DNA from: Candidatus Parcubacteria bacterium
GTDB lineage: Bacteria > Patescibacteriota > Minisyncoccia > JACPXH01
Assembly: GCA_016196625.1 (NCBI GenBank)
Contig: JACPXH010000007.1
Span: 150,461-214,460, forward strand
Reading direction: 5' to 3'
Length of the DNA stretch: 64,000 nucleotides
Part shown: positions 4,441-62,044 of the stretch, one piece after another
Numbering within the stretch: position 1 is the first letter of the stretch
Layout: every line of letters starts with the position of its first letter
Notes under the pieces: generated by a model
Database searches by the model: none
The model's input: only the letters and a program-made list of their open reading frames with translations
What the model was told of the DNA's origin: nothing
Position numbers and translations under genes: made by a program

Positions 4441-4500
4441 AAATGCAGTATAATAATACCCACTAGAAGAAGATAATACTAATCTCTGGGTGGGGCTAAG

Positions 4501-26145: not shown

Positions 26146-29100
26146 TTGCGAACTCTAATGCAAAAAATCACGCCATATCTTCTTGCTGGCTTGGTGTCGG
26201 TGGTTTTCGTTTTTGCGTTTGCGCTGACTGGAGCGACGCAGGTCGCAGCGGCGACGAATTGCGCGGCTGTGCCGGGCTATACCCTTTCGACCGCAGCCTT
26301 GTGCACGACGACTACCGTAACTCTCTCCGGCACGACTGCCACCATCACCTCCTCAACCGTGCGTCAGGATGCGTCGGGCACTGAGCAGGGCTTGCCGCCC
26401 TCAAACTGGGGCATTGCGAGCGACATTCGGGTGTTTATTGATGATAGGTATTACTGCGGCAGCTCAACCCACACGGTTAGCTGTTTCGTGGCCAATCTTT
26501 CTGGCGGTCCCCATCAATTCAAAACAATCTGGACGGGTAGCGCATCCAGTCAGAGCATATCCACCACCAACTACGATAGCTTCACGATTGCGCTCCCCAA
26601 CCTGACGGTAAGTTCCATTACTCCTATAGGCACGCCCACCGTAAATCAGTCATTCGCCATTCAAGCGGTCATCACGAATAACGGTACCGCATCGGCAGCA
26701 TCGTCGTGGGCGCAAACCGCAATCGGCGTACAAGGCAGTTCGAACGCTACGATCAGTGGCTTTACCACGCCTGCGCTTGCGGCCGGCAGTTCCTACACGG
26801 CAACATTTTCATACACGCCCGCTATTGCCGGCACATACGCGATCAACGTGTGCGCGGATGTGGGCGGCAGTGTGGCCGAGTCAAATGAAGACCCCTATAC
26901 CGATAACTGTAAAACCGTCCCGGTAACCGTTTCAGCGCCCGCCGTTACCTCCGTGACCGCCGACCTCAAAAGCAACGGCGCGGATGGGCCGCTGACTATC
27001 GGCTACCGTCAGTCAGTGCCGCTCTCTTGGATAAGCACGAACGCGACCGGTTGTTCTATTCTCATACCGGGCCTGAACTCGGTCTCCGGCGGGCCAAGCG
27101 GCTTTATGACTGCTGGACCTCTTGAATCATCCGGGGTAGTTGTGCTCACTTGTACGAACGCGAGTGGCGCAAACGGATCAGACACGCTCACCGTCAACGT
27201 AAGTCCGGCGCCCACGCCTTCAATTTCCAATGTGTTTGCCGCGCCCAGTACCTTCACGCGGGGCGATTATCTTACGATCACGATTGTGGGCGAAGAATTC
27301 GGCGCCACACCCGGCGTGCTCGAAGAGATGACCGGTTATGGCGGCACGGTTAAAAATAGTTATGTCCGCGGCGAGTACAACAGATGGGAGTTGACGTGGA
27401 GCAATACGCAAATCAGCGTACGGATTTTCCCCTCGGTTACGCAAGATTACGCGCTGGGGCCGCGGACGGTTTACGTGCGGGTTGCAAACCAGTTTAATCA
27501 ACGCAGTACCGTGCAACCAGTTACCGCAACCGTAAATCCGGGCTCTACCAGCGCTCTCGCTCCCACCCTGACCGAAGTGTACGTGAACCCACGTCCCGGC
27601 ATCCGCGGGCAAACAGCCACCGCATTTTTCAACGGTGTGCTCAACGCCGACTCCTGCACCTTTCAATATAAGGGTACCGGGGAGGCGGCGTGGGGCAACG
27701 CTACCACTGGCAGTTGCACCACCGGCGTTACCTTCACCGTGCCGGCAGATCTGCCGCGGGGTCTCTATTTGCTTCAGGGTAGGGCCTGTCGGAATGACGG
27801 CACCTGCTCGGAATATCGTCAGATGGTGGGCGAGTGGCAGATCAATCCGTCTCCGACTGAACCGGCCGTAACTTCCGGCCGAGCTGTCATTGACGGATTT
27901 CGCGTCATCACTCCGGACACCCTTTTGATCCCCGCAAGCACGAGCGCCGCTCCCACGACCAATGTTCATTTGACCGCCACATTGCGCCAAGCCTTGACCG
28001 TTTCGCTCTACTATCCATGTCGTGCGGGCTTCAACATTTTGACCGCGGCCAATGTGCAGCTTGCCTGCAATGACGAAACGACCAACACCTTCCCGCTTTC
28101 GAACGACTCGGGCGGGTTTCGGACCGCGGAGCCGATTGTGCTTGTCAGCAACGCCGTGGCCGGCGGCGGCACCATTGAGCTGCGGCTCAACGCCATCGGT
28201 CTCGACGGCGTCAGAGTCTCCCGATCCGTAACGTTCACGTTGGCAGGAGGGACGGCTGCTACGCCAATTCCGTCTCCAATTCCGTCTCCAACCTCGCCCA
28301 CCCCCTCCATCTTCAACACTTTCGCTGCTCCCTCAACCGTGGCCCAGGGCGACTACCTCACGATCACTCTCACCGGAGATAACTTCGGCGCAAACCCCGG
28401 CGTACTTGAAGAGATGACCGGTTACGGCGGCACGGTTAAAAATAGTTATGTCCGCGGCGAGTACAATCGTTGGGATCTCACCTGGACCAACACCCAGATC
28501 GCGTTCCGACTTTACCCGTCAGTCACCCAGACTTACACCACCGGTTCCCACACTCTCTATCTGCGGGTGACGAACTCGTTCAACCGGCAGAGCAATGTGG
28601 TTTCGGTGTCGGCAACTGTGACCGGAGGGACGGCTACCAATTCTCAATCGCAAACCCAAAGCCAAACGCAATCCCAGTCGCAAACGCCACCTCTCCAGAG
28701 TTCCGTGCGGCCGCTGGTCCGGGCGCAAAGCGACACGCGGGTGTTCGCCATTGTCAACAATCAACGGTTCTGGATTCCTGACACCCAGACCTTTGAGGCC
28801 GCGGGGTATCGGTGGAGCGATGTACGAGTGGTGTCAGACGTACAGGTTGGTCAGTACGCTCGGCTGCGCCTGGTGCGCGCGGGGTCTGATTCGGCGGTGT
28901 ATTACATTACGGAATCAGGCTTGAAACGTTTAATTCCCAGCCCGGCCGTGTTCGCGTCATACGGCAACCGCTGGGAGGACGTTGTGTCCATCAGTCAAGT
29001 AGAGTTGGCCGCGTATCAAAGCGTTGCATTCATTCACCGGGGAGATGGGCGAGTGTACAAAATCGAAAACGGCGTTAAGCGTTGGGTGAAAACCGAGGAG

Positions 29101-29193
29101 GCTTTCCGGCGCCTCGGCGGCCGGTGGGACCAGATTGCGCCGGTCAACCAAACCGAGTTTGAGAGCTACCCGCTTGGAGCTGATATCGAGTAG
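26146..29193 (+). CDS. Large secreted/cell-surface protein (1015 aa) with a signal peptide, internally duplicated ~105-aa domains and a (SQ/TQ)n low-complexity tract
   Basis: Hydrophobic N-terminus. Duplicated segment NVFAAPSTFTRGDYLTITIVGEEFGATPGVLEEMTGYGGTVKNSYVRGEYNRWELTW... versus NTFAAPSTVAQGDYLTITLTGDNFGANPGVLEEMTGYGGTVKNSYVRGEYNRWDLTW.... The tract is SQSQTQSQTQSQSQ. Confidence 0.7.
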   Translation: MRTLMQKITPYLLAGLVSVVFVFAFALTGATQVAAATNCAAVPGYTLSTAALCTTTTVTLSGTTATITSSTVRQDASGTEQGLPPSNWGIASDIRVFIDDRYYCGSSTHTVSCFVANLSGGPHQFKTIWTGSASSQSISTTNYDSFTIALPNLTVSSITPIGTPTVNQSFAIQAVITNNGTASAASSWAQTAIGVQGSSNATISGFTTPALAAGSSYTATFSYTPAIAGTYAINVCADVGGSVAESNEDPYTDNCKTVPVTVSAPAVTSVTADLKSNGADGPLTIGYRQSVPLSWISTNATGCSILIPGLNSVSGGPSGFMTAGPLESSGVVVLTCTNASGANGSDTLTVNVSPAPTPSISNVFAAPSTFTRGDYLTITIVGEEFGATPGVLEEMTGYGGTVKNSYVRGEYNRWELTWSNTQISVRIFPSVTQDYALGPRTVYVRVANQFNQRSTVQPVTATVNPGSTSALAPTLTEVYVNPRPGIRGQTATAFFNGVLNADSCTFQYKGTGEAAWGNATTGSCTTGVTFTVPADLPRGLYLLQGRACRNDGTCSEYRQMVGEWQINPSPTEPAVTSGRAVIDGFRVITPDTLLIPASTSAAPTTNVHLTATLRQALTVSLYYPCRAGFNILTAANVQLACNDETTNTFPLSNDSGGFRTAEPIVLVSNAVAGGGTIELRLNAIGLDGVRVSRSVTFTLAGGTAATPIPSPIPSPTSPTPSIFNTFAAPSTVAQGDYLTITLTGDNFGANPGVLEEMTGYGGTVKNSYVRGEYNRWDLTWTNTQIAFRLYPSVTQTYTTGSHTLYLRVTNSFNRQSNVVSVSATVTGGTATNSQSQTQSQTQSQSQTPPLQSSVRPLVRAQSDTRVFAIVNNQRFWIPDTQTFEAAGYRWSDVRVVSDVQVGQYARLRLVRAGSDSAVYYITESGLKRLIPSPAVFASYGNRWEDVVSISQVELAAYQSVAFIHRGDGRVYKIENGVKRWVKTEEAFRRLGGRWDQIAPVNQTEFESYPLGADIE

Positions 29194-35402: not shown

Positions 35403-35443
35403 AAAAAAGCTGCCGGACATCATCCGGCAGCTTTTGTTTTTTT
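35403..35443 (+). terminator. Intrinsic terminator after groEL
   Basis: Stem GCTGCCGGA / TCCGGCAGC with loop CATCA, followed by TTTTGTTTTTTT. Confidence 0.7.
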
Positions 35444-35669
35444 GAAAACTTGAAACTTTTCTGAAAGTGGGTTTCTGTAAACAGACAGGGATAAGCCATG
35501 TGTGAAATGAAAAACATCCTGTTGATAACTAAACTATTTTTGCACTCTTGCGGACGCGATAAATAGTGTAAAATTAGGAGTAGCGGTGTGCGCGAGTAAT
35601 ACATTTTGGCCGCCTCGTAAATTTTATCCGCCTTCGCAGAAAACCGTGGGCGTAAGCCCGCGGAACTTC

Positions 35670-37832
<2,163 letters not shown>

Positions 37833-37896: not shown

Positions 37897-40800
37897 TTGG
37901 TTTTCGATCTTCATATGATCCGTATCAAGCGTCCCCCCAAGGGGAAAAAGCGCGACTCGCTCACCAAGCGTCTCTTTGCCGCAGGTGCTGCAGGGGTAAC
38001 CATGTTTACCGGCGGCGTCCTTGGAGTGCGTGCGGCCGGAACAGTCAAGCCGCCCTTCGCGCAGGTGCGGCTGCGCACGGATCGCGTTTCGGGTGCAGGG
38101 CGGACGCCGGGTGAGGCTGGCGCGGGTACGAAAATTTCTACAGAGGAGGAAGCGCGCATCAAGGCTGAAACCGGTCGCTTCTTGGGCGAACTGCGCAAAG
38201 TAGCAGGGGAGACTGACAGCCAGAGTTTCTTTGCCCGGGTGCTGAACATCTCTCCGGCCGAAGCCGGGTCAGACCTCAATGCTGCGATTCAGGATTTGTA
38301 TAACTCCGGCAATTTGACCCAGGCCGTGCAGAGCGTGCTGGCCAGCGGAGCATATACCCCCGATCAGGCAGCTGCCGCCCTTCGAGAAGCTGAAACAGCG
38401 GGCGTCATCCCTGCGGGAACGACGCTTGATATCGCCGTCAACCTCGGCGCAACGCCCGAGCAGGCGGCTGCGTACGCCCAGCCCTCCTACGTGCCATCAT
38501 CTGAGGCGGATGTCTACGTTCCGCCGCCTGCAGCTGCGGTGCTTCCCGCAGCACCCGTTGCCCCGATTATCCCGCCGCCGGCTGTGGAGTCCGGACCGCC
38601 GGTTTTACCGTCCGTGCCCGCCGCGGCGCGGACCCCCGAAGTGCCACCGCTTCCACCGCCGGTCATCCGCATTGATGAAGAGAGAGGCATCGGGCATGTG
38701 GCCATGCCCGCGGCGCCGGTCGTGCCGGTTGCCCGCGAGGAGCCGACCCCGACGCCTGAACGTACGGTGCAAACCGAAGGCGGGACGTTTATCGTGACGC
38801 CAGGAGGCGCGGTGTTAGATGCAAACCGGAATCCAACCCCCTACTCCGTTGATGCAGGCGGACAAGTGAGTTATCAGGGCACGCCGGTTGGTCGGCTCGA
38901 ATTCCAGCAGCCCGGTATTGAGGAGATGCCTCGAGAAGTCTTTATCCCTACTCCACCACCAGCGCCACCGGTCCAAGCTCCAGGACCCGTCATTATCGTC
39001 CCGCCGGGCGAAAGCATAGTCGTCCCGGAGGGCGAGAGCAGATTTGTGTTAACGCCGGACATCAAGCAGGCTATCCAGGACATCTACCAGAACGAGGGCC
39101 TTGATTCACTCACCAAAGCAGTGGGCGTTCAGATCAACAAGGGCGTGGTGAGTCCGGCCGATGCGGCCCAAGCGCTGCAAGCTGCTGGCATTCCTGTTGC
39201 AGACATTGCCTACATTGCCCGAAACCTCGGGGCCACGCCCGAGCAGATCGCGGCGCTGGTGCCGTCAGCTCCGCCTCCGCCAGCTAAACTGGAAGAGCCG
39301 ACGCTTCCTCCGCCGTCCGCTGCCCCGCTTCCCAGAGGCGCCGAACCCTCCGCACCGCCGGTAGAGATCGGCCCGCCCGTCTGGCAGATTACCCATCCCA
39401 CAGTCCCGGGCCTCACTGTTGACGTTGACGCCGATGGCAACTTCCGTCTGCCTGTTGATTCTGGACTGGGCGAGTTCTCGGGCGCCTTCGGCCAAGTGAA
39501 TAAAGGTACGCTCACCTATACAGTGCGTAGCACCAGCGGCACCGAACAAAGTGGTGATCTGCGGGCTGAAGGTTGGCTCATTGCCGCCGTGACTCCCGCC
39601 TCGCCGGCCAAGCCAGCTGCGCCAGCTCCGGCCCTTCCAACCCCTGCCCCAGTCTTTACCCTCCACATTGGGGATAAAACTTTTCAGATCGACCCCGAGA
39701 CCTTAATCGTCACCAAACCAGAAAGCGACCCTAATCAGTACGTGCTCTATCCAGCTGGTACACCTGGTCAGTACATCATTACAGTGAATGGAGTCTCTAC
39801 CTTTCGGTTAGACACCGCCACCGGCAACCTCACCCAGTTCACTCCCGCTGGCGAGACCAAACCCATTGGGCGTTTTACGCCGGGTGGCGCCGCTGGTCCT
39901 GGTAATACTTTTACGTTTACCCCGAATCCCCCTGCCACTACCACCCCGACATCAACCTCGCCTGTATCATTTCCCGGCGCAACGCCAACGACGACCGTTC
40001 CCGTCATACCCAGACCAGTTCCCCCGGGCGTGATCGGACCCAGTCAACCGCACGAGCTATGGACGAACGTCGTCATTGATAACCAGCGCTATAACCTCTA
40101 TCAAGACGGTGCCGTCAATGCCGTTGATGCGGCGGGCGGAGAAGTCGCGACGCCGTATGTCATTCACTACAACGAAAACGCTCAGAAGTATGAACTCTGG
40201 CGTGCTGCCAATCACGGTGAAACGGTATTTGCGATTCTCAACCCGAGCGGTCAGCTCGAGCAAACTTTCCATCTTTTTTTCAGCCCGGGTCCCTTCGGTA
40301 CCACCCTTCGGGTCAACGATCGTCCCTACCGGATCAATGCGGATGGCACGGTGCTGAATCCGCCCGGCGACACTCAGCGGTACTTTATGGATGTACGCGG
40401 GAACATCCATCTGAACGATCAATACGGTCCCTTCCTCTACCTTATTCTTGTGGACGGTACCGTCCGCGATGCTCAACATCGAACGGTTGGACGAGTAGAA
40501 CCCAGCGGTACTTTTGTTCCGACACCGGGATCGGTTGGCGCGCCTGTACCGGCCCTTCCAACCCCTGCCCCAGTCTTTACCCTCCACATTGGGGATAAAA
40601 CTTTTCAGATCGACCCCGAGACCTTAATCGTCACCAAACCAGAAAGCGACCCTAATCAATATATGCTGTATCCAGCCGGCACACCTGGTCAGTACATCAT
40701 TACAGTGAATGGGGTCTCTACCTTTCGGTTAGACACCACCAACGGCAACCTCACCCAGTTCACCCCAGCTGGTGAGACCAAACCCATTGGGCGCTTCACG

Positions 40801-43800
40801 CCCGATGGCGCCGTGGGTCCGGGCACTACTTTCACGTTTACCCCGAGCCCCGTCGCTACCACCACGCCAACGTCGACCGCGCCGATCTCTCCTGCGTCCA
40901 CTCCCGCGCAGCCAGCTGCCGGGCCTGCCACCGTTCCCCCGGCTGCAGAAGCCGCACCTTCAGTTCCTGCCGCTACCCCCGCTCTCCCCGAGGTGCGCGT
41001 GCGTATCAACGACGCGATCTACCGGATCATGCCCGACGGCACGGTGGTGAGCCCGCCGTCTGACCCGAACACCTACTCGGTGACCCGCAACCCTGACGGC
41101 ACCGCTGCGATCAGCCGCGAAGGGCAGGTGATGTATACGGTCAACGCCCAAGGCGAAGTCCGCACTCCCGACAACCAGACAGTGGGCCAGTTTGATGTGC
41201 CCAAGGCTGAAGTCGTAACCGACTACACCGCCGGCCGAGTTGACTACTACCTGCGTAAAGCCGAGAAAGTCGGCCAAACTGATGCCGCTACGATTCGGGA
41301 GCTCGCGGACAGTGGCGTCAGTCCCACCGTGATTGCGGAGCGTGCTCTTAAAGAGTGGGGCGGAGATGCGCGGCGGGTCGCGGTGGCGGCAGCGGAAGCC
41401 GGTGCTGCGCCTCACCTGATTGCCGAGGTTTTGAAAACGAAAGAATTGAAGGTGCAAAATCCAGACGGCACGAGTCGAACCGTGGACGCTTTTACCTTGG
41501 CTTTGGAGCAAGCAGTGGGGCAGGTAGCCGCGGTGCCGGAATCAAACCAAAGGCTGCAGGGGATGGGTTCGATTGCCGATTTTCTGCGCCGCGCTGGCAT
41601 CTCGGCCCAAGAAGCCAGAGATCGGCTCAAGGCCGCTGGTTTCACTGACGATCCCACGTCCATCCTGAGCGCTGTTGGTTACAGCGCCGAGGGGCTGGCC
41701 ACCACCTTCCCCGTAACTCCGACCCAAATTCGGGCCGTCAATGTGGACGGCACGTGGCTCGCGCTCTCGCCCGATGGGACGGTCTACATTCCGCAGGCTG
41801 GCAGCGCGGCTGAGCTCAAAGTGATTGACGGTGAGACCCGGATCCTGTTCAAGGACCGCACCGGGCGCATCGTACCGCTCCCCATAGCCCGGATCGAGCA
41901 GGTTTCAGACGTAGACCTCCTGCGTTTGGCGCAAGCCAAGTTTCAGGCCCAGGGGTTGACCCGGCCTCAAGCCAATGAGCGGATTTTTCCCCTGGCGGTT
42001 GCTGCCGGTTGGAGCGATCCCGGCCGGGTTATTCGGGCTGCGCTGGAAGCCGGCTTTTCTCCGACAGACATTGTGAGCGGGCTGGCCAGCATTGACAGCG
42101 CTCGCCGCGAGAACAATCAAGAGAGCCATTATCTGGAAGAGGGGATCATGGCGGCGCTCGATGCCGCGCGAAGTCCTGAAGCGCGGCAGGCGACTGCGGA
42201 TACGATCATCGCGGCCCTGCGCGAATCCGACCTCGGTCGCGAGCGGCTCGATGAGCTTATCCAGTACCTCGCCCCGCGGCTCAACGTGCCGGAAAGTCAG
42301 CTTCGCGAGCAGTTGGGGGTTAATCAGCCTTTGTATAAAGCGGCGTTTCGTCTCGAACTGGACCTACCTCGTTATCTTCCAGAATCGCTGCGGCAATCCC
42401 AGAAGGTATTCACTGGAAGATCGCTTCGGGTTATAAGTCAAGTCCCCATACACGAATACGCCGCCACGTTGACTTCGGTTTCCACTGGTCAGCAAACAGC
42501 GCCTGCTGTTACGCGCAAAAGTTCGCACGTCATTAAAATCGCCATTCCGGCAGAACTCAGGGCTGATCAATATCAGCTTACCATTACAATTGATGGTCAG
42601 GCGCAAACATTTCCCATAGAAGTGGAGCGCCCACTCCAAAAGGCCCAAGCGCCCGTGGAGGTTGTGCCCTTGACGTCAGTCGAACAGGCTGCGATTGCGT
42701 TCAGGACCACTCTGTGCACGAATTGCGCATCTGAAGGAGTGTTTAGCGGAGATCCCAATGACGCGAATAAACTCATTCATATCAGCAATACCAGAGATTT
42801 GGTGCGATCAACTGACGGCGGTAGGTCTTGGCACGCGTTGTCGATCGATAACGCCGCACAGTATCCGCGCGCCCAGGTCTTATATGTTGGCGATCCCAAA
42901 GTAGTGAGTTTACCCGATGGTTCATTTATAATCACCAGCCTCGGTAGCGATCATAATAAGAATTTTACTTTAGGCGGATTGATATACCGAGGCACCTACA
43001 CGGGCGGGCTTAACGCCACCTTTTTTCAAGACATCCCTTCAAATTTGCCGGCGAACCAAGATATCGTTGTGGATAGACCAATTTTGGCAGTCGATCAGAG
43101 AAACTCTGCCGTATATATTGCCGTCAATGGCGCCTGGTTTGGCGAAAGAGGAGAATCCGACTTCGAACATGCAATCTACTTCTCTCAGGACGGCGGTCAA
43201 ACATTTAAGAAGGGCAGGATCGGTCATGGACTCGCAATCCACTCGATGACAGTTGGTGCCGACGGGACGCTCTACGCCGCTCGTCTCGGCGAGCCGCATG
43301 AACTGTTCCGCTTTTCTTCTCTCGACCCGGTGCGGTATGAAGTGCTACCGTTACCGGGCCGTCATCAGACCTGGGAGGGTTCGGTAAGAATATCGACCAC
43401 CAGCCGACGTGCCTGGGTTGGCTACGAAGGTCCGGAAGTCATCGCCGATACTAGCCCAACAAGTCCTCATCAAGGGCGGTTGTATGCGGTGTGGTCGCAG
43501 TCCGAGCGGGTCGTTGATGATCAAAACTTTGAGTATAAGCACTATGGGTTTAACCATGACGTATTTGTCAGTTATTCCGACGATCGAGGCGTTAGTTGGT
43601 CTCCGCCAGCGAAGGTGAACGACGATATCGGATCCGGCGATCAAGTATTCCCGTCAGCCCGACTTGACACGAACGGTGCTCTTCACGTTGCCTTCTTCGA
43701 TCACCGGAATAATCAGAGTGACGCAGTGTTCGACGTGTACTATGCGAAGTCCACCGACGGTGTGAATTTTTCCAAGAATCTTAGGTTAAACGAGGAGCCG

Positions 43801-46800
43801 ATCCCAAACGAGTATGGCGGACGGTTCCTTGGCGACTACATAGATATGGTCATGCCATATCCGGATCGTGTCTATGTCGCATATCCAGACGCGCCACTGT
43901 TTGCCAATGGTAAACGTTCAACCATGGCAACGGCCGTGAAGTTTGTGGAGATTTCCCAGGCGGCGCTTGCGCCACTCATGCCGTCGAGGGGGGCTTTCAG
44001 CCTTGATCGTTGGCGCACAGCAGGAGAACGCATAGAGACACTCCATTCGCTTCTTGTATCAGGGTGGACGCCCGCAGAAATCATCCGAGCCCTTGCCGCG
44101 GTAGACGCATCTGCCAAGGCCGCAGGCCGCGAGACTCATTACCTCGAAGAGGGGATCATGGCGGCACTGGAAGCCGCGCCAAACCCAGAAGCGCGGCAGG
44201 CGACGGCGGATACGATCATCGCGGCTCTCGGCGAAGCGGGGTTGAGCCGGGAGCAGACGCAAGAGTTGATTCGGAATCTTGCCCCGCGGCTCAACATGAC
44301 CGAAGAACAGCTGCGTAGTGCATTGGGGATCGGCCAGCTTGCGCGTCAAACCTCTCGACTCACGCGACAAATGACCCGTCAGACTCGCCCTACCGTCCCG
44401 CGCGCGACACTCGTCAAAGTAGATGAGCCGGAGTTTGCCAAGCAAGAGTTGGTGTTGCCGCCCACACTGTTGCCCGCGCCAAACTCGCGCGATGTTCAGG
44501 GCTTTTTAGGGTCAGCTTCAAGCGAGGTGGCTTTCCAGCTTGTTTCACTCATTCGCGACCGGTTCCAGCTTGGGGCAAGCGCGTCGCGCCGCGGTTCGGT
44601 TGAACTGGGCGACGAGGTTACGATTACTCTCCAAGTCAAAGGCCAAGATGTTCCGCCCGACAAATTAGTTACGTTCGACGCCCTCGTGCCTTCAAAGTTC
44701 CGGTACGTGTCCGGGTCCTTAGTGGTCAACAATGTGCCATCGTCTGATCCGGAATTCATCCTCCGCACACCCTTCGCCACCGTCGTCGACGAAGAAACGC
44801 AGGTCCTCCGGCTTGAGCACGGGGTCTGGTCTTACGGAAACACCACGCGGACGTATCGGTTCCGAATGCGCGCTGATACTATCGGCCGGCCCGGCAATTT
44901 GGACGTGAAGGCGTATCTGGACGTTGGTCCGCAGTTGGCCCAGATTGCCGGGGTGGGTCCTTTCACCACGAGCGTGCGCACGAGCGGTCCGCGGCGAGAA
45001 GCCCAGCAGACAACGGAGCGCAACGACGAATTCTCCGGTTATGCCTTTGATCAAACGTTCTCCGGCGGCCGGACGCTGGGCGAAGCTCCGCTGCCCGGGC
45101 GGGCGGGCGAGTTGGTGCCGGGTGAAGCGAATCAGTTTATGCCCGCGCAGGCGATTGAACTTTCGCCGCACGAACGCAACACCATTTCGGTTCGCTATCA
45201 TTTTACGAAACGCTCGCCGGATGCCGCCAATACCCTGCGGCTCAAATACACCGTCGAACTGCCCGGAGAGGTCGAATACCTGTGGCGGTCAGCCCGAATT
45301 GACGGGGCGTTGATTGACACCGAGCCTCTCCGGACACTCCCCGAAGAGCGTACGCCGGCCGGGACGCGACTTGTTACGATAGTGGATCGAGAGACGCCGG
45401 TTGACGAACGGCCGCACGAACTTTCGTTTCAAATTTTTACCGCGGCTGCGCCAGAAACCCAGGCGCGCGCCCCTTTGGTGACGCAGCTGTGGGTTAACGA
45501 CAAGCTGGTCCGAAAGGATCGCTGGGAGCCGATTATCATCCGGGCAGCACAGCCCGCGCCGCCGCGAGACGCCGCGCCGGCTCCGGGCGCCCCTTCGGCG
45601 CCGCCCATATCTGAACCGCCCTCTCCGCCCACCAACTGGGAGCCGCGGTACGTCAGGTTCGACTCAAGCCTTGAGTTTTCCCGGCGCGAGGTGCGGGCTG
45701 GTGAGCGGGTTGACATTACGGCGCGGCTCGAGCGGATCGATTCCGGAGGCCCCATTGAGAATTTTCAATACCTTTTGGAGCTGTCTCCGGGATTACGATT
45801 CGTCGCGGATCAGGGCGTGTCAGTTGATTCTACGCAGCGCCTCGAGCCCGAGGTTTCCGAACGGAACGGCATCCAGCGAGTACGGGTTCGCATGCGGTTT
45901 CCGGCCGGAAGTACAAGGGCTACAGGGGATGTATCAGCTGGGTTCGGGGATCGGCCGACCACGTCAATCCGTTTTACCGCGCAGGCCGCGGCGGATGTAT
46001 CGCCGGGCGAGAAACTTTTGGTGGGTAAGTTTTCCGGCGACGGGTTGCAGCTTGGGCTTGACGCCGCGAATGTCTTGGTTCGCGCGCCTGAAGTCCAGCC
46101 TCGCTTTACCGGCGAGATGTTCACGATTCCTGCGGCCGAGGCGCGGCCGGGAGAAGCACTGGCGGTACAAATCCGACTCTTTCGTACTGATGCGGCGGGT
46201 CGGGTTGGAGATGTCGTTTATGAGCTGGAAGTGCCGGCTGGATTTGAGTATGTTACCGAGTCAGGCGGAGCATCAATTGATGGTCGGTCTCTTGCGGTCA
46301 CGGTGGTGTCTCGGACCGACGGCGCGCAGGTGGTGCGGACCGATTCGTTCTTTTCTCCCGGCGGCAACAATTCCCAGGCTATTACCGTGTTCCTGCGTGC
46401 GAAGTCAGATGTTCCCGCTGGCGAGAAAACCTTTGTGGGTCGGATTTCGGTCAGAAACCGTCAGGTCCTCGAACAGCGCACGAGCGTTCAGGTGCCGGAG
46501 CTGGCAACGGTTCGGATTGACCCGTTCCTGTTCTTCTATGGAAGAGCGACGGTGGGCGATGAGTTTACTGTCTATGCCGATCTCGGTCGTCGCGATACCG
46601 GCGGGCCGATCCCGCAGGTAGATTATCGTCTCCAACTGCCTCGCGGATTCGAATTTCTCCCCAACAGGTCCGATGTGTACTTTTGGGATACGGGCCGCTC
46701 CCAACCGCTCAACGCGGGCGTCTCGGACGGGGTCGTTACGGCCACAATCGCAAACTTTCCCGCCGGGCCGGGGGGGCGCACGATTCGATTTCGACTGCGC

Positions 46801-49113
46801 GCAACCGATACCGTGATACCGGGCGAGCACACGCTCCGGGGCGAGATTTCCGCCGCTGGCCGCGCGCTCGGGTCGGCGAGCGCCACCCTCACCGTTAGGG
46901 CCGCGCCCGAAGTGCGCTTTGATTCCAGCCTCGCGTTGTCTCAACTGGAGGTGGAAAACGGACAGTCGTTTGAACTGACCGCGTCTCTGACTCGCGTTGA
47001 TGACGGCGGGCCTGTTGAACGAGCCGAGTACAATCTGCAGGTGCCTGAAGGTTTTGTGCTGGCCCAAGTGCCTGATGCGATTACCTTTCGGGGAGCGACG
47101 GTGCTCATTGATTCGACTTCTTCGCCGGAGAACGGTTTACTGGTCGTGCGGCTGGAAAATATCCCCGCGCGCCAGCAGTCATTTGGCACTCCCGTGGTGG
47201 CGAACATCTTGCGTTTCAAGCTGCAGGCGGTTGGCGCCGCTCCCGGTGCGCAACAGTTCTCCGGCACGCTCTTTGCGTTGGAGCCCACGAGACGCGAATT
47301 GAGCACTGCCTCCGCTTCGATCAATGTCCGCCAGCCTCTGCCGCAGATCAGTGACGGCGTTCTGCAGCTTACCGAAGGGATTGTGGAGGCAGACCGTGTC
47401 TTTCGCGTCATCACCAGGTTCAGGCGCATAGATCGCAGCGATGACATTGAGCACTTCGGCTACGAGCTGCGTCTGCCTCAAGGGTTTCGGCTCGTGCCCG
47501 CTCAAGAGGGAGGCGGGGCAGAGCTTGATGGTCAGCAAGTAGCGGTGACGGTTTCGAGCACCACGCCAGACGGAGTGCAGATTATGCGCCTTGAGATTGA
47601 GCGTCTCACGCAGGCCGGGGCAGAACATCGGTTGAGATTTACGTTACGCGCTCCCAGCGAAGAAGGACAGTACTCTCTGGACGGAGGATTCTTTGTCGGC
47701 ACAAGCCCCGTCTTCAGCAGCAGCACGGTCGGCTTTGAAGTCCTGCAGTCGGTAGCCAACGTGAGGTTCAGAAATAGACTTGAGGCTTCTAGCGATCGCG
47801 TGGCCAACGATCAGGTTTTTGCGATAACTGCGCAACTCACGCGAGAAGATGCCGGCGACACGATCAGGCGCGCTCGGTATAGGCTTTATTTTCCGTACGG
47901 CTCCCGGTTCGTTGGCGGCCCGGAGGGGGTAACATTCAACGGTATGCCCATTGAGCCGCGCTTTATCACTACGTACTCGAGCCTCGGTAGTTACTACATA
48001 GATGTGGATTTAAGCGGCTATCCGACTGGCGCGGGAGTTACTTCACCGCTTGTCTTCCAGGTGAAGGCGCCGCCCGCGCTGATAGTGGGTACGCAGCAGT
48101 TTTTCGGCTCGCTCGTGCTCAATAACGATACCAATCGCGCGTACCAAGCCGACCCGCTCAACATCACCGTTGTACCGGCGCAGTCAGCCGGGCCGCAGCT
48201 GAGACCGTATGTTTCCGGTCCTTGGTCAGCCGTGGCAGCCGGCGATCAGTTTTATCTTGACGTGAATCTCCAGAGACTCGATGACGGGGACGTAATCCGA
48301 AATTTTGAATACGCCATCCATCTGCCCCGGGGGTTTGAGTACGCTCCATTCGTGCTGCAAGGGGGCAGAGAGGACAGGACAGTGGGGTTTGGCGATCAAT
48401 CTGTGCCCGTTGAAGTGGTCACTGATCAAAGCGGCACACAGGTTTTGAAGATTCGGGTTGACTACCCTGCGGGCATAACCTCGCGCGCTTTCGGCGTGCC
48501 GCTTCGGGCGACTGCGGACGTTCAAACTGGGACGGCGACTGTTTTGATCACGTTTTCTGCCGAAGGTCGGGAGCTGGCGAGAGCTGAAACGGCGATCAAC
48601 GTTGAACAAGCGCCAGTAGAGATTGCGTTTGAGCCGCGCGATCTGTTCCTGTGGGGGGCGGTGTCATATCCCAATACGCATGAAGCTAGGCCCGACTTAG
48701 AGAGTTTTGTGTACGCGCCGCTCGTCCGCTTGGACACCGGCGGCCCGATTCAAAACTTTGAGTACCGGTTGGTGCTGCCCGCTGGGTTTGCGTATGCGCC
48801 GGGCGAAGACAGCGTCTGGTTTGACGGCGCGCGAGTGCGGGCCGAGGCGATTGACGTTTCTACCGATATAGCTGGCAGGCAGACAGTGACGGTGAGGCTG
48901 GAGTATCCTGCTTCGAGGAGGCGGGAGCGCGGCGTACAAGTGAAAATTCGCTCCACTGCAGAGATCGCCCCGGGACAGAAGGCGTTTGCCGGTCAGGCAG
49001 TTGTTGACGGCCGCGTGCTTGAACCCCAATTTACCGCCACGGTCAACTTGGTTCCAGCCGGTCCGAACTCGGGCGGCGCCGGATTTTTTGACTCGCCGCA
49101 GCCGATGGGCTAG
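37897..49113 (+). CDS. Giant repeat-rich surface protein (3738 aa)
   Basis: Single uninterrupted ORF of 11.2 kb. Hydrophobic N-terminus. N-terminal region has repeated GATPEQAAAYA / GATPEQIAALV motifs and Pro-rich linkers. BNR/Asp-box repeats STDGGRSWHA, SQDGGQTFKKG, SDDRGVSWSP and STDGVNFSK (about 42700-43950) imply a sialidase-like beta-propeller. About 12 tandem ~150-aa modules share the pattern FDSSL.(S/L)..EV..G....TA.L.R.D.GGPI..F.Y.L.LP.GF.Y (about 45650-49080). Confidence 0.7.
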   Translation: MVFDLHMIRIKRPPKGKKRDSLTKRLFAAGAAGVTMFTGGVLGVRAAGTVKPPFAQVRLRTDRVSGAGRTPGEAGAGTKISTEEEARIKAETGRFLGELRKVAGETDSQSFFARVLNISPAEAGSDLNAAIQDLYNSGNLTQAVQSVLASGAYTPDQAAAALREAETAGVIPAGTTLDIAVNLGATPEQAAAYAQPSYVPSSEADVYVPPPAAAVLPAAPVAPIIPPPAVESGPPVLPSVPAAARTPEVPPLPPPVIRIDEERGIGHVAMPAAPVVPVAREEPTPTPERTVQTEGGTFIVTPGGAVLDANRNPTPYSVDAGGQVSYQGTPVGRLEFQQPGIEEMPREVFIPTPPPAPPVQAPGPVIIVPPGESIVVPEGESRFVLTPDIKQAIQDIYQNEGLDSLTKAVGVQINKGVVSPADAAQALQAAGIPVADIAYIARNLGATPEQIAALVPSAPPPPAKLEEPTLPPPSAAPLPRGAEPSAPPVEIGPPVWQITHPTVPGLTVDVDADGNFRLPVDSGLGEFSGAFGQVNKGTLTYTVRSTSGTEQSGDLRAEGWLIAAVTPASPAKPAAPAPALPTPAPVFTLHIGDKTFQIDPETLIVTKPESDPNQYVLYPAGTPGQYIITVNGVSTFRLDTATGNLTQFTPAGETKPIGRFTPGGAAGPGNTFTFTPNPPATTTPTSTSPVSFPGATPTTTVPVIPRPVPPGVIGPSQPHELWTNVVIDNQRYNLYQDGAVNAVDAAGGEVATPYVIHYNENAQKYELWRAANHGETVFAILNPSGQLEQTFHLFFSPGPFGTTLRVNDRPYRINADGTVLNPPGDTQRYFMDVRGNIHLNDQYGPFLYLILVDGTVRDAQHRTVGRVEPSGTFVPTPGSVGAPVPALPTPAPVFTLHIGDKTFQIDPETLIVTKPESDPNQYMLYPAGTPGQYIITVNGVSTFRLDTTNGNLTQFTPAGETKPIGRFTPDGAVGPGTTFTFTPSPVATTTPTSTAPISPASTPAQPAAGPATVPPAAEAAPSVPAATPALPEVRVRINDAIYRIMPDGTVVSPPSDPNTYSVTRNPDGTAAISREGQVMYTVNAQGEVRTPDNQTVGQFDVPKAEVVTDYTAGRVDYYLRKAEKVGQTDAATIRELADSGVSPTVIAERALKEWGGDARRVAVAAAEAGAAPHLIAEVLKTKELKVQNPDGTSRTVDAFTLALEQAVGQVAAVPESNQRLQGMGSIADFLRRAGISAQEARDRLKAAGFTDDPTSILSAVGYSAEGLATTFPVTPTQIRAVNVDGTWLALSPDGTVYIPQAGSAAELKVIDGETRILFKDRTGRIVPLPIARIEQVSDVDLLRLAQAKFQAQGLTRPQANERIFPLAVAAGWSDPGRVIRAALEAGFSPTDIVSGLASIDSARRENNQESHYLEEGIMAALDAARSPEARQATADTIIAALRESDLGRERLDELIQYLAPRLNVPESQLREQLGVNQPLYKAAFRLELDLPRYLPESLRQSQKVFTGRSLRVISQVPIHEYAATLTSVSTGQQTAPAVTRKSSHVIKIAIPAELRADQYQLTITIDGQAQTFPIEVERPLQKAQAPVEVVPLTSVEQAAIAFRTTLCTNCASEGVFSGDPNDANKLIHISNTRDLVRSTDGGRSWHALSIDNAAQYPRAQVLYVGDPKVVSLPDGSFIITSLGSDHNKNFTLGGLIYRGTYTGGLNATFFQDIPSNLPANQDIVVDRPILAVDQRNSAVYIAVNGAWFGERGESDFEHAIYFSQDGGQTFKKGRIGHGLAIHSMTVGADGTLYAARLGEPHELFRFSSLDPVRYEVLPLPGRHQTWEGSVRISTTSRRAWVGYEGPEVIADTSPTSPHQGRLYAVWSQSERVVDDQNFEYKHYGFNHDVFVSYSDDRGVSWSPPAKVNDDIGSGDQVFPSARLDTNGALHVAFFDHRNNQSDAVFDVYYAKSTDGVNFSKNLRLNEEPIPNEYGGRFLGDYIDMVMPYPDRVYVAYPDAPLFANGKRSTMATAVKFVEISQAALAPLMPSRGAFSLDRWRTAGERIETLHSLLVSGWTPAEIIRALAAVDASAKAAGRETHYLEEGIMAALEAAPNPEARQATADTIIAALGEAGLSREQTQELIRNLAPRLNMTEEQLRSALGIGQLARQTSRLTRQMTRQTRPTVPRATLVKVDEPEFAKQELVLPPTLLPAPNSRDVQGFLGSASSEVAFQLVSLIRDRFQLGASASRRGSVELGDEVTITLQVKGQDVPPDKLVTFDALVPSKFRYVSGSLVVNNVPSSDPEFILRTPFATVVDEETQVLRLEHGVWSYGNTTRTYRFRMRADTIGRPGNLDVKAYLDVGPQLAQIAGVGPFTTSVRTSGPRREAQQTTERNDEFSGYAFDQTFSGGRTLGEAPLPGRAGELVPGEANQFMPAQAIELSPHERNTISVRYHFTKRSPDAANTLRLKYTVELPGEVEYLWRSARIDGALIDTEPLRTLPEERTPAGTRLVTIVDRETPVDERPHELSFQIFTAAAPETQARAPLVTQLWVNDKLVRKDRWEPIIIRAAQPAPPRDAAPAPGAPSAPPISEPPSPPTNWEPRYVRFDSSLEFSRREVRAGERVDITARLERIDSGGPIENFQYLLELSPGLRFVADQGVSVDSTQRLEPEVSERNGIQRVRVRMRFPAGSTRATGDVSAGFGDRPTTSIRFTAQAAADVSPGEKLLVGKFSGDGLQLGLDAANVLVRAPEVQPRFTGEMFTIPAAEARPGEALAVQIRLFRTDAAGRVGDVVYELEVPAGFEYVTESGGASIDGRSLAVTVVSRTDGAQVVRTDSFFSPGGNNSQAITVFLRAKSDVPAGEKTFVGRISVRNRQVLEQRTSVQVPELATVRIDPFLFFYGRATVGDEFTVYADLGRRDTGGPIPQVDYRLQLPRGFEFLPNRSDVYFWDTGRSQPLNAGVSDGVVTATIANFPAGPGGRTIRFRLRATDTVIPGEHTLRGEISAAGRALGSASATLTVRAAPEVRFDSSLALSQLEVENGQSFELTASLTRVDDGGPVERAEYNLQVPEGFVLAQVPDAITFRGATVLIDSTSSPENGLLVVRLENIPARQQSFGTPVVANILRFKLQAVGAAPGAQQFSGTLFALEPTRRELSTASASINVRQPLPQISDGVLQLTEGIVEADRVFRVITRFRRIDRSDDIEHFGYELRLPQGFRLVPAQEGGGAELDGQQVAVTVSSTTPDGVQIMRLEIERLTQAGAEHRLRFTLRAPSEEGQYSLDGGFFVGTSPVFSSSTVGFEVLQSVANVRFRNRLEASSDRVANDQVFAITAQLTREDAGDTIRRARYRLYFPYGSRFVGGPEGVTFNGMPIEPRFITTYSSLGSYYIDVDLSGYPTGAGVTSPLVFQVKAPPALIVGTQQFFGSLVLNNDTNRAYQADPLNITVVPAQSAGPQLRPYVSGPWSAVAAGDQFYLDVNLQRLDDGDVIRNFEYAIHLPRGFEYAPFVLQGGREDRTVGFGDQSVPVEVVTDQSGTQVLKIRVDYPAGITSRAFGVPLRATADVQTGTATVLITFSAEGRELARAETAINVEQAPVEIAFEPRDLFLWGAVSYPNTHEARPDLESFVYAPLVRLDTGGPIQNFEYRLVLPAGFAYAPGEDSVWFDGARVRAEAIDVSTDIAGRQTVTVRLEYPASRRRERGVQVKIRSTAEIAPGQKAFAGQAVVDGRVLEPQFTATVNLVPAGPNSGGAGFFDSPQPMG

Positions 49114-54560: not shown

Positions 54561-54645
54561 GGTGAGGTGGCCGAGCGGTCTAAGGCGCACGCTTGGAGCG
54601 CGTGTATACCGAAAGGTATCGTGGGTTCGAATCCCACCCTCACCG
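54561..54645 (+). tRNA. tRNA-Ser (anticodon GGA), long variable arm
   Basis: Acceptor GGTGAGG / CCTCACC. D-arm GCCGAGCGGTCTAAGGCG. Anticodon stem CACGC / GCGTG with loop TTGGAGC. Variable arm TATACCGAAAGGTATC. T-arm GTGGG-TTCGAAT-CCCAC. CCA not encoded. Confidence 0.8.
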
Positions 54646-54871
54646 CATTATACTTTCTTTGGCCATCTCTTGATGGTTAAAGAAAGTATAAATAGGGTAC
54701 GGTGGGATTCGAAGGGTAGTTCTGCAACGCAAACTGCTTTGCGTTGCAGAACACCCGGGCTGCGGAGGAGGAGCGGAGCATGTGCCGCAGGCACGGCGAA
54801 GCGACGGGGGAGAAGGAATCCCACCCTCACCGCCAGTGTATCCTTTCATGTTTTTGCGATTACGTTGGCCT

Positions 54872-55330
54872 ATGATCAAATTTATTATCGCGGCAGTTGT
54901 ATTAGTGGGCGTTGGTGTCGCCATCTATTATGGCCGGTTTTTGTTCACGAAGAAGGTCGTACGGGAAGAAGTGCCGGTAGAGATGAAGGCCTCGAGTCGC
55001 AGCCTGCGAGAAGGATCCTTCGAAAACATTGATTTCATCCACAAAGGTTCTGGCAGGGCGCTCATATTGGAAGATGCCAACGGACACAAGCTGCTGCGGT
55101 TTGAAAATTTAGAAGTTACGAACGGTCCGGATCTCTATGTGTACCTTTCCCGAAATCCCCGACCGACGAAAGACAAGGATAGTTTGGGAGATTTCATCAA
55201 CCTTGGTCGGCTCAAGGGAAATGTCGGCGACCAAAACTACGAGCTTACCCAGAACAGCGACGGCTATCAAAGCGTGGTGATCTGGTGCCGTCAGTTCAAC
55301 GCCCTCTTTTCTTTCGCGACTTTGAGATAA
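54872..55330 (+). CDS. DM13-domain protein with an N-terminal TM anchor
   Basis: FENLEVTNGPDLYVYLS ... GDQNYELTQNSDGYQSVVIWCRQFNALFSFA matches the DM13 pattern (GPDL.VyL ... Q.Y.i ... sVvIWC..F...F). Start at ATG 54872. Confidence 0.6.
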   Translation: MIKFIIAAVVLVGVGVAIYYGRFLFTKKVVREEVPVEMKASSRSLREGSFENIDFIHKGSGRALILEDANGHKLLRFENLEVTNGPDLYVYLSRNPRPTKDKDSLGDFINLGRLKGNVGDQNYELTQNSDGYQSVVIWCRQFNALFSFATLR

Positions 55331-59789: not shown

Positions 59790-60878
59790 TTAGGTGGCAA
59801 TCTTGAGAAAAACTTTCTCGTATTCATCTACCATTTTTTCAAGCCCAAAATTTTCCTCAGTGTGTTTACGGCAGAAGTTACGATCGATGTGATCAATCCT
59901 CTTCGTCGCCTCAACCATTTCTTCCACGGTGTTCACAATAAAACCAGTTTTCCCGTCAACCACAACTTCCGGGACTGAACCTCTACGAAATGCGACCACC
60001 GGCGTGCCCGCGGCCATTGATTCGATCATGACCAGCCCAAATGGTTCTTCCCACTGAATAGGCACAAGAGTTGCTTTTGCGTTGCCGTAATACTCGTAGA
60101 GTTCGCGCCTTGAAACAACGCCGATATGGCGGATTTTGTCTCTAAGATACGGCTTTACTTTTTTATCCCAGTATTCGCCGGTAACCGGCGGGCCAAGAAT
60201 CAAGAGTTCTTCGTCGGTTTTTCGCGCGACTTCCACCGCTTCAGCCACGCCTTTTTCAGGATGAAGCCTGCCTACAAATAAAAGATGATTTCCTTTCGGC
60301 TTTTGGATAAATGGTACTTCGCCGATGGCGATGCCGTTATAGATAGTTGCAAGATAATTCAGATCGGGAGCGGGAATTCGTTGGGCATCGCTAATGGATA
60401 CATAATATTGATTAGGCGATGAAAACATCTGAAACGCCTCGGCTCTCCACGGGTAAATCGGGTCGTGGAGTGTATAGACGGTTGGGATGCTGCGTATTGC
60501 ATACGCCAGAGGGAGTGCGCGGTCTACAGGATGAATGTGGACTATATCAAACTTGCCCTCTAGAGCTGCTTTATATATTGCCGAAAGGAGAAACTGATCC
60601 CAAAGATTGTAAATCTTCGCTCCTTCCGCGCCGCCAACATTTGATCCTGCTAAAATAGAAAGTTCTCCATTCTGGCGAAGGGCTTTCAATTTATTTGTCC
60701 TTACCTCCGATACCTTTATTTTTGACCCTTCTGGCGCAAAAAAGGTTACTTCGTGGCCGCGCCGAGTGAGCCCCTCGCTTATAGCCATCGCGATATCCAT
60801 CGGCGCATAGATGACGCCGAAGGGTGGGGGCGTAGTGAAGTGGCCAGTGACCATTGTGGCAATGCGAAGTTTCCTCAT
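59790..60878 (-). CDS. Glycosyltransferase family 1 (GT-B)
   Basis: GT1 C-terminal EX7E-type region (PIQWEEPFGLVMIESMAAGTPVVAFRRGSVPEVV). Start at ATG 60876-60878. Confidence 0.8.
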   Translation of the reverse strand: MRKLRIATMVTGHFTTPPPFGVIYAPMDIAMAISEGLTRRGHEVTFFAPEGSKIKVSEVRTNKLKALRQNGELSILAGSNVGGAEGAKIYNLWDQFLLSAIYKAALEGKFDIVHIHPVDRALPLAYAIRSIPTVYTLHDPIYPWRAEAFQMFSSPNQYYVSISDAQRIPAPDLNYLATIYNGIAIGEVPFIQKPKGNHLLFVGRLHPEKGVAEAVEVARKTDEELLILGPPVTGEYWDKKVKPYLRDKIRHIGVVSRRELYEYYGNAKATLVPIQWEEPFGLVMIESMAAGTPVVAFRRGSVPEVVVDGKTGFIVNTVEEMVEATKRIDHIDRNFCRKHTEENFGLEKMVDEYEKVFLKIAT

Positions 60879-60880
60879 GA

Positions 60881-62044
60881 TTATTCCAAAAGAAAGTTTA
60901 ATAATGCTCCGCTTGCCCAAGCCTGCGGCGAGCACGCGACATAGATTTTTTCTATTTTCCCTTTGATTACCGTATATAGTTCCGGGATTTCTCCGAGGAC
61001 TTGATAGGCGTCAAGAAGGGCATATTTTATTTTTCCATACTCGCGCTCATGCCCACACTTTTTAAGTCCTTGAGCAATAATCCAGTTGTCGTGCGGCCAG
61101 ATAGAGCCGAGATGGTAGCTCATAGGATTGAAGTCGGGATTTGATTCGGCATGGGTGCGGATACCGTACGGCGTCCACATATCGTTTTGAAAAAGTCGAT
61201 TCACGACCGCTTTAATTTTATCATCTTCGCCGTCAAGAATCCCGCTGAAAAGGAGATGGCCGGGATTGGAAGAAATTCTGTTGTCTGGGAATTTTGATCC
61301 CGAAAGGGCGGTGGTAAAAAACTTTTCCTCGGGAAGCCAAAATTCTCTTATGACCGCTTCCTTTAATTTTTCGGCACGCGCGCGAAGCTTCTTTTCGAGA
61401 GATTCGTTTTTTAGCATTAACGCAAGCTCCGCGGCTCCGCGAAGCGCGGCGTAGTAATACCCTTGTGCCTCAACGAGCTCTATCGGCGGCGTGAGCCCCA
61501 AATGATCCATGCGGCTGTCTTTCCATCCTTGGTGGCGGAGGCCGACGGGATTTTTTCTTCCGTATTCAAGGAGCGTATCGCCGTCAAAATCTCCGTATTT
61601 TTCGCACCAATCCAGAGCGGAAACGATATGCGGCCAGTATTGGAGAAGCCACTCGGTATCCACGCTTTTTTCATAGTAGAGGCCGCACAGGTATATAAAA
61701 AGCGGGGTTGAATCCACCGAGCCGTAATACGGCAGAGGCCACGGCAGAAATTTATATTCCGATGGATTCTGGTGCCACTCATGGACGATTTTCCCCGGCT
61801 CTTCTTCGCTGGCGTTATCAATTTCTTTTCCTTGCAATTCAGCGAGCAACTCAATTGTCCGCCGGGCAATCATTGCGTCATAATCAATTAATTGCCACGA
61901 AACAATGCAGGAGTCCCTGGCAAAAAGAGCGGCAAATCTCGGGAGCCCCGCGCGAATATAGCCGAGTTCCGGGTCTCGCAATGTCTCAATGTCTTCTTCC
62001 AGCTCCTGTTTGATATTTCTAATCGCTATCTTTGCTTTAGGCAT
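60881..62044 (-). CDS. Glycoside hydrolase, amylo-alpha-1,6-glucosidase / GDE_C-like (glycogen-debranching-enzyme C-terminal domain family)
   Basis: (alpha/alpha)6-barrel-type motifs FARDSCIVSWQL, RHQGWKDS and GSIWPHDNWI resemble the GDE_C / GH63-like family. The assignment is by resemblance. Confidence 0.65.
   Translation of the reverse strand: MPKAKIAIRNIKQELEEDIETLRDPELGYIRAGLPRFAALFARDSCIVSWQLIDYDAMIARRTIELLAELQGKEIDNASEEEPGKIVHEWHQNPSEYKFLPWPLPYYGSVDSTPLFIYLCGLYYEKSVDTEWLLQYWPHIVSALDWCEKYGDFDGDTLLEYGRKNPVGLRHQGWKDSRMDHLGLTPPIELVEAQGYYYAALRGAAELALMLKNESLEKKLRARAEKLKEAVIREFWLPEEKFFTTALSGSKFPDNRISSNPGHLLFSGILDGEDDKIKAVVNRLFQNDMWTPYGIRTHAESNPDFNPMSYHLGSIWPHDNWIIAQGLKKCGHEREYGKIKYALLDAYQVLGEIPELYTVIKGKIEKIYVACSPQAWASGALLNFLLE

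Follow-up and report, generated by a model that had tools for sequence, protein, structure and literature searches.

Little is known about how bacteria of the candidate phyla radiation (CPR, or Patescibacteria) recognize and hold their hosts, a task for which giant surface proteins are prime candidates. One such candidate is encoded in a 64-kb stretch of contig JACPXH010000007.1 from a Candidatus Parcubacteria assembly (GCA_016196625.1), the whole of which (64,000 nucleotides) we analysed and refer to as the window. It carries an 11.2-kb gene whose product an earlier annotation, hereafter the original prediction, described as a surface protein combining a sialidase-like BNR β-propeller with about 12 copies of an uncharacterised module. 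What kind of protein is this? Our results make it rather likely that it is a Sec-exported, N-terminally anchored, fibrillar-adhesin-like cell-surface protein through which the cell contacts a host or partner. The protein had already been deposited as hypothetical, giant CPR surface proteins with immunoglobulin (Ig)-like or DUF11-type arrays are already known, and so are the folds found here; what is new is modest, namely an unclassified module family, a rare domain cassette (D1-D2-M) and a fusion that links this cassette to one containing the BNR propeller.

The gene is real and uninterrupted. Its longest single open frame (37897..49113, forward strand) comprises 3738 codons when counted from the first TTG (37897), and, given the local base composition, a frame of 3738 codons would stay free of stops with a probability of about 1e-54; the GC fraction by codon position is 0.66, 0.50 and 0.63. 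An exhaustive protein search returned MBI3305216.1 (3732 residues, ‘hypothetical protein’, from a Candidatus Parcubacteria metagenome-assembled genome, MAG), which lies on a 216,792-bp contig and is identical to the window translation from the ATG at 37915. Translation probably starts at this ATG, and all residue numbers given here count from its methionine. The single 11.2-kb gene of the original prediction therefore stands on its open frame and on its deposited twin, whereas the length of 3738 residues given with it holds only as a count from the TTG, the deposited protein having 3732.

Could the frame nevertheless be a chimera of two or three adjacent genes, joined or distorted at internal repeats during assembly or annotation? 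The source is a short-read MAG, each of the two cassettes described below occurs elsewhere as a separate gene, and a 300-nt direct repeat (39619-39918 and 40540-40839, 92% identity, 921 nt apart) lies inside the gene. Yet the frame stays open over its entire length, the cassette junctions do not coincide with DNA repeats, and no homologous locus has the two cassettes as neighbouring genes that a frameshift error might have joined. The 300-nt pair, the sole site in the gene where a short-read assembly could plausibly err, and a 185-nt pair (76% identity) are the only DNA repeats in the gene, within which no tandem DNA repeats were found. Because no DNA-level repeats were detected among the modules of the C-terminal array, a collapse of that array is not realistic, and we ruled it out. 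Taken with these observations, an artefact is very improbable. No paralogues of the giant protein were found elsewhere in the window.

We mapped the anatomy of the protein by windowed self-BLAST and iterated hidden Markov models (HMMs), with the resulting coordinates collected in Table 1. The C-terminal array consists of eight clear modules (M1-M8) of 134-149 residues, with individual scores of 134-149 bits to the profile built from them and pairwise identities of 24-36%. They share the signature RxDxGGPIxxFxYxLxLPxGF, within which the loop RxDxGGPIxxFxY is the hallmark of the family, and the signature quoted in the original prediction agrees with the consensus of the aligned modules. Its count of about 12 copies had to be revised, since the profile gives eight unambiguous modules and two marginal, divergent leading domains (D1 and D2), making ten β-sandwich domains that span residues 2165-3714.

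At the level of sequence, these modules match no known family. Pfam and NCBIfam gave no match at permissive thresholds (single-module Pfam scans covered M1, M3 and M8), a PDB sequence search with the module profile gave no significant match (lowest E 0.098, none of the matches a cohesin), the same search with the whole giant protein was equally negative, and word-indexed homologue searches found nothing, whether started from the module alignment or from D1-D2. An exhaustive HMMER search of 1.84e9 representative proteins did return relatives (92 at E<=1e-3, 8 of them at E<=1e-10), the best non-self one having an LPXTG motif and 14 Pfam DUF11 repeats (E 4.8e-21 in total over 11 stretches).

The original prediction had proposed fold prediction and Foldseek searches for both the module and the BNR region. 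For the module, AlphaFold2 (AF2), given only the eight paralogues as input, produced a confident all-beta model (predicted local distance difference test, pLDDT, 90.1), a β-sandwich whose top Foldseek match in the PDB is 9IFR (E 1.3e-7, template-modelling scores, TM-scores, of 0.61/0.71, root-mean-square deviation 4.0), followed by integrin calf/thigh domains, Gram-positive pilins and cohesins. The entry 9IFR is a DUF11 (PF01345) domain, a family renamed CLIPPER that is reported to be more widespread than any other tandem stalk domain in bacterial and archaeal fibrillar adhesins (10.1101/2025.04.25.650565). The assertion that the module belongs to no recognised family is thus right for its sequence but not for its fold, which is known and DUF11/CLIPPER-like. 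An unprecedented fold was rejected on the 9IFR match and on the DUF11 and cohesin domains that are the module’s only remote sequence relatives; as modelled, it is no new fold but adds a so far unclassified family of sequences to the DUF11/cohesin class of β-sandwiches.

With DUF11/CLIPPER domains the modules share a β-sandwich of similar size, a CnaA-like Ig-type fold, an arrangement in tandem arrays within very large surface proteins, and the order of motifs (a G-E/D-x-V strand, a loop, x-L-P-x-G-[LF]-x-[FY]-V, and a strand ending in G). They differ in the RxDxGGPI loop, a feature of the module family and not of DUF11, in lacking the isopeptide triad, and in the absence of any Pfam DUF11 match at E<=1, either in the whole protein or in M1, M3 and M8. 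An hhalign comparison of the module with the DUF11 repeats of one protein gave a probability of 38%; against a DUF11-like set the figure was 95%, inflated by circularity since this set was drawn from the query’s own matches.

The cohesins (PF00963) compete with DUF11 as relatives, and with them comes a different account of the protein, in which the eight M modules are cohesin-type domains that bind dockerin-bearing proteins and organise a multi-protein complex on the surface, much as a scaffoldin does. When 28 weak profile matches were scanned with Pfam, 9 were Cohesin and 8 DUF11, and the hhalign match to 25 cohesin-like stretches (98%, E 2.5e-13, 129/142 columns) was both stronger and longer than that to the DUF11-like set. 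These stretches, however, had been picked by sequence motif from the module profile’s own matches, making the comparison circular and its figures inflated. Cohesins also share the β-sandwich fold, appear among the Foldseek matches (2vo8 with TM-scores of 0.61/0.66, and 2jh2, 5lxv and 4dh2), and occur in scaffoldins in tandem multiplicity, to which the layout of eight copies bears a likeness. Against this, no Pfam Cohesin match at E<=1 was obtained for the modules scanned (M1, M3 and M8), no solved cohesin was matched by sequence, cohesins rank below CLIPPER as a fold match, D1 resembles DUF11 more than it does cohesin, and no dockerin-like motif was found in open reading frames (ORFs) of at least 80 residues in the window. 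On balance, a docking platform of this kind seems decidedly improbable.

The two leading domains place the array in a wider context. D1 aligned by hhalign with an independent DUF11 alignment at 83% and with M at 65%, and D2 aligned with M at 50%, a weak match. Four proteins (P0126, P0127/P0213 and P0133) are collinear with residues 2165-2726 of the giant protein at 28-31% identity, with D1 (E 1e-14 to 1e-31) followed by D2 and one copy of M; the archaeal ones differ from the giant protein by Cys-rich inserts and an extra C-terminal domain. P0133 comes from a Nanoarchaeota MAG, the contig of P0127 encodes Spt5-NGN, an archaeal-type D-Tyr-tRNA deacylase and FtsZ, and the contig of P0126 is uninformative on origin. 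A scan for the D1-D2-M arrangement in 185,579 species-representative genomes found one locus (Nanoarchaeota), and a scan of JGI metagenomes found two loci. The cassette is therefore very rare, known otherwise from a handful of metagenomic proteins, and every other copy of judgeable origin is archaeal. The C-terminal 1570 residues of the giant protein are this cassette with its last domain, M, amplified eightfold. As side observations, a 1481-residue ORF (46-4491, forward strand, in the locus L005) lies on the same strand about 600 nt upstream of the gene for P0213, with a 144-residue ORF between them, and has no sequence relation to the giant protein. In the module of P0127/P0213, the RxDxGG loop reads ‘RGDNG’ and contains the integrin-type tripeptide RGD, which is probably coincidental.

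The second cassette, in the middle of the protein, joins an Ig-like β-sandwich, which opens with the conserved motif ELDLPxYxPxxLxxxQKxF(S/T)G, to a BNR propeller. All four BNR/Asp-box repeats quoted in the original prediction are present (Table 1). While scans of the whole protein with Pfam and NCBIfam gave BNR matches below threshold only, the excised unit passes the cutoff for Pfam BNR repeats (PF02012, 31.4 bits versus 27) and fails that for BNR_2 (25.8 bits versus 31.4). The AF2 model of the Ig-propeller unit, built from 45 aligned sequences, has a pLDDT of 91.7 and a predicted TM-score of 0.91; its sandwich has eight strands, and the propeller behind it is all-beta. Foldseek placed it among generic BNR propellers (GH74, sortilin, Ycf48 and sialidases), with a probability of 1.00 to many of them. 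The TM-scores of the propeller are low overall, the best target-normalised values being those to the seven-bladed Ycf48 (0.56-0.65) as against 0.44-0.49 to sialidases, and the propeller is probably seven-bladed, compared with six blades in glycoside hydrolase family 33 (GH33).

The propeller might be an active glycoside hydrolase (a sialidase, a nonulosonic-acid hydrolase or some other exo-glycosidase) that stays attached to the cell and trims or degrades glycans of the host envelope, either to feed or to gain entry. The sandwiches would then serve as spacers or carbohydrate-binding accessories. Consistent with this, some distant homologues are named ‘glycoside hydrolase’ or ‘sialidase family protein’, profile matches to the PDB extend to GH74 (a xyloglucanase, ranked first at 5e-20) and GH33 (sialidases at about 1e-15), and a dense set of acidic and aromatic residues (D1660, D1720, Y1734, Y1857, D1882, D1903, D1929, D1974 and Y1975), together with R1931, is at least 90% conserved over the 45 sequences. 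The PDB alignments, however, are short, driven by the Asp-boxes and shifted in register along the propeller. Several Asp and Tyr residues of the conserved set sit, as we read the sequence, in a per-blade strand motif that recurs about seven times and may be structural. The sialidase signature fails as well, as judged from the alignment and not from residues placed on the three-dimensional model: no RIP motif was found in residues 1590-2020, and where GH33 needs three Arg residues, R1931 alone is at least 90% conserved, R1832 reaches at least 80%, and no N-terminal Arg is conserved. NCBIfam sialidase models gave no match, and the best TM-scores are to Ycf48, which is non-catalytic. We therefore rejected sialidase (GH33) as a family assignment on the BNR_2 score, the missing RIP motif and the missing Arg triad, and of the ‘sialidase-like’ BNR propeller originally predicted, the Asp-box β-propeller stays, the likeness to sialidases holding only at the level of the superfamily. 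We regard the enzymatic explanation as a whole as unlikely. Compared with the GH33, GH74, sortilin Vps10 and Ycf48 propellers, the one described here has the four Asp-boxes, a confident model and both profile and fold matches, but it aligns collinearly with no enzyme family, and its N-terminal Ig-like domain with the ELDLPxY motif sets its own subfamily apart.

The Ig-propeller unit has homologues in 218 proteins. The closest seven are 41-50% identical, and the full-length ones among them have about 600-740 residues, with an N-terminal transmembrane helix, an ELDLPxYxPxxLxxPQKxFSG domain and the propeller. The unit of about 550 residues is thus also found as a stand-alone, membrane-anchored protein of about 600 residues in uncultured bacteria and DPANN archaea; the gene of one close relative has the bacterial neighbours queA and tgt, and a more distant relative (33% identity) is named Woesearchaeota. 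More distant relatives carry type IX secretion system (T9SS) tails or PKD, CARDB or dockerin modules, all surface or secreted contexts. Both these stand-alone propeller proteins (P0002-P0008) and the archaeal D1-D2-M proteins are collinear with the giant protein over the whole of the respective cassette, but are single-cassette proteins of 600-1200 residues with their own N-terminal anchor and, where M is present, a single copy of it.

Three relatives of the propeller unit (P0008, P0012 and P0013) end in dockerin-like calcium-binding repeats such as DTNDDGKVDITD; P0012 has a precomputed Pfam Dockerin_1 match and P0008 is named Woesearchaeota. These tails count in favour of the docking platform discussed above, and they suggest that in some lineages the propeller unit may be displayed through cohesin-dockerin pairing. 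A bolder version of that account would make M a functional cohesin-type docking module and the giant protein a scaffoldin in a CPR bacterium, which would carry the propeller as a built-in payload and could dock as many as eight others, each bearing a dockerin, without covalent bonds. We consider this a long shot. If true, it would point to a cohesin-dockerin toolkit for host interaction, shared and horizontally exchanged between two radiations of ultra-small episymbionts, an idea that arises because propeller relatives carry dockerin-like tails (one of them in a Woesearchaeota protein) and because the full D1-D2-M relatives of judgeable origin are archaeal.

The N-terminal half would provide the tether for these cassettes. 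The hydrophobic N-terminus noted originally is a basic stretch followed by a transmembrane-like segment (residues 20-38), which is the highest hydropathy window and the sole segment of this type in the giant protein. The scaffold that follows contains two helical repeats of about 80 residues (121-201 and 383-462, 40% identical) and four small β modules of about 60 residues (583-638, 798-860, 890-945 and 1029-1092), two of which fall inside a recent in-frame duplication of about 130 residues. The Pro-rich linkers were likewise borne out, with six such segments in the whole protein and five of them in the scaffold (192-258, 323-377, 437-500, 670-716 and 989-1026). Two adaptors of about 100 residues, H1 and H2, are 59% identical at the amino acid level (76% at the nucleotide level over 185 nt), and each payload cassette is preceded by one of them; they look like a reused adaptor, or the footprint of how the fusion arose.

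Read from the membrane outwards, the protein would begin with the signal or anchor helix, continue through about 1000 residues of Pro-rich spacers, helical repeats and four β modules into the helical-looking region, and then present two payload cassettes, each behind its adaptor: the Ig-like domain with the propeller, and D1-D2-M with eight copies of M. Because both cassettes exist elsewhere as independent N-terminally anchored proteins, the giant protein would represent two types of surface protein fused onto one long tether. The propeller is a likely ligand-recognition head for a glycan or peptide, possibly a glycosidase, and the ten DUF11/cohesin-like sandwiches may be arranged as an extended rod or as a surface for multivalent binding. 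The likely role of the whole is to bring the cell into contact with a host or partner cell and to attach it there. That this is a surface protein, as originally predicted, is suggested by the N-terminal signal or anchor, the Pro-rich spacers, folds of extracellular type, and homologues with transmembrane helices, LPXTG motifs, T9SS tails or dockerins. The computation shows the open frame, the domain limits, the predicted folds, the homologies and how rare the D1-D2-M cassette is; export, anchoring, orientation, ligand and a part in attachment are inferred from them.

In classical fibrillar adhesins, the adhesive domain sits at the tip. As we read the class from PMC8286594 and PMC9210967, its members are long proteins with a tandem array of stalk-type domains, an adhesive domain and an anchor at the cell surface; the giant protein has 8 + 2 β-sandwich domains in tandem. 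Several observations weigh against assigning it there. The stalk-like array is C-terminal and so presumably distal, with the propeller in mid-protein; Pfam scans of the giant protein matched no known adhesive-domain family, leaving the propeller as the candidate. The modules do not have the Lys-Asn isopeptide residues that stabilise CLIPPER stalks mechanically, which, with a catalytic Asp, are found in many but not all CLIPPER members (10.1101/2025.04.25.650565): the positions of the Lys, Asn and catalytic Asp are occupied by hydrophobic or other residues, Lys is missing altogether from M3 and M5, and from the first 25 residues of every module. About 1500 residues of the N-terminal half are without a detectable homologue. 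As for anchoring, the hydrophobicity of the N-terminal helix is only moderate (Kyte-Doolittle mean 1.66); the helix could be a signal that is cut off, which would set the protein free. No recognised wall-anchoring motif was found in the giant protein, which has neither an LPXTG motif nor a C-terminal transmembrane segment. Even with these points counted, a fibrillar-adhesin-like surface protein is the account we favour.

Vampirococcus, another CPR bacterium, has membrane proteins of 1392-4163 residues with DUF11, integrin and fibronectin domains that have been proposed to serve in host attachment (PMC8080830). The giants of Vampirococcus lugosii resemble the protein described here, at the level of description, in coming from a CPR organism, in being predicted membrane or surface proteins of several thousand residues and in their DUF11/integrin/fibronectin-type domains; they differ in having recognisable Pfam domains, whereas here the domains are sub-threshold or unclassified and a BNR propeller is added. 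The fusion suggests that the Ig-propeller and D1-D2-M cassettes work together, and residues 1478-2030 as well as any M module offer expressible targets for ligand screening. No new mechanism is revealed; the gain is a sequence family outside Pfam and NCBIfam for the DUF11/cohesin fold class.

Table 1. Features of the giant gene and its upstream neighbour (nucleotides in window numbering, residues counted from the Met at ATG 37915)
Feature	Residues	Nucleotides	Strand	Basis or remark
Whole gene		37915..49113	+	3732 codons and stop; deposited protein starts at ATG 37915
Basic stretch and hydrophobic helix (Sec signal peptide or signal-anchor)	1-42	37915..38040	+	Sequence, hydropathy
N-terminal scaffold	43-1099	38041..41211	+	Self-BLAST, HMMs, composition; no Pfam match
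Recent internal duplication	563-691 vs 870-997	39601..40905	+	About 89% amino acid identity; 92% over 300 nt
Region read as helical	1100-1471	41212..42327	+	Judged from sequence alone; no Pfam match
Adaptor H1 (end of helical-looking region)	1372-1471	42028-42327	+	Same helical reading
Ig-like β-sandwich	1478-1585	42346..42669	+	AF2 strands 2-94; conserved in stand-alone homologues; weak Big_3 match
BNR/Asp-box β-propeller	1590-2020	42682..43974	+	Asp-boxes, AF2, Foldseek, profiles
Four Asp-boxes	1632, 1757, 1888, 1946	42808-42831, 43183-43206, 43576-43599, 43750-43773	+	Sequence
Adaptor H2	2042-2141	44038..44337	+	Same helical reading; H1 paralogue
D1, divergent DUF11-like β-sandwich	2186-2355	44470..44979	+	Marginal module-profile match (independent E-value, iE, 0.07)
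D2, divergent β-sandwich-like domain	2413-2545	45151..45549	+	Marginal module-profile match (iE 0.004)
Module array M1-M8	2578-3714	45646..49056	+	HMM, alignment, AF2, Foldseek
Module starts		45646, 46093, 46504, 46906, 47341, 47755, 48196, 48637; end 49056	+	
C-terminal tail	3715-3732	49057..49110	+	Without transmembrane segment, without LPXTG
secA		35586-37832	+	Ends 82 nt before the ATG of the giant gene

The rest of the window is an ordinary chromosomal stretch, containing ychF, pgm, the RNase J gene, uvrC, uvrA, groES-groEL, secA, dnaG and rpoD along with genes for DUF5671, DUF2339, LemA and CARDB proteins. The placement in a small-genome bacterium fits the name Candidatus Parcubacteria and this mixture of housekeeping genes with DUF5671, DUF2339 and LemA. 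A strong terminator-like site follows groEL (35405-35435) and none was found in the gap between secA and the giant gene. The genes for the Sec motor and for the giant, presumably exported protein may share a transcript, and the position of secA fits export by this route. Another large protein predicted to lie at the surface, with 1015 residues and a CARDB domain (26146-29193, forward strand), is encoded 9 kb upstream of the giant gene, followed by the DUF2339 and DUF5671 membrane proteins; it has no similarity to the giant protein.

At the far end of the window, the G+C content falls to 0.46-0.49 (60-64 kb) compared with about 0.56 elsewhere, and three genes for family 4 glycosyltransferases (GT4) lie at this drop together with a gene for an MGH1/GDE-like glycoside hydrolase (59790-63940, reverse strand), possibly an acquired surface-glycan locus. 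Finally, a 156-residue ORF called mechanically at 54562-55032 is almost certainly spurious because a tRNA-Ser(GGA) gene (54561-54646) coincides with its start.

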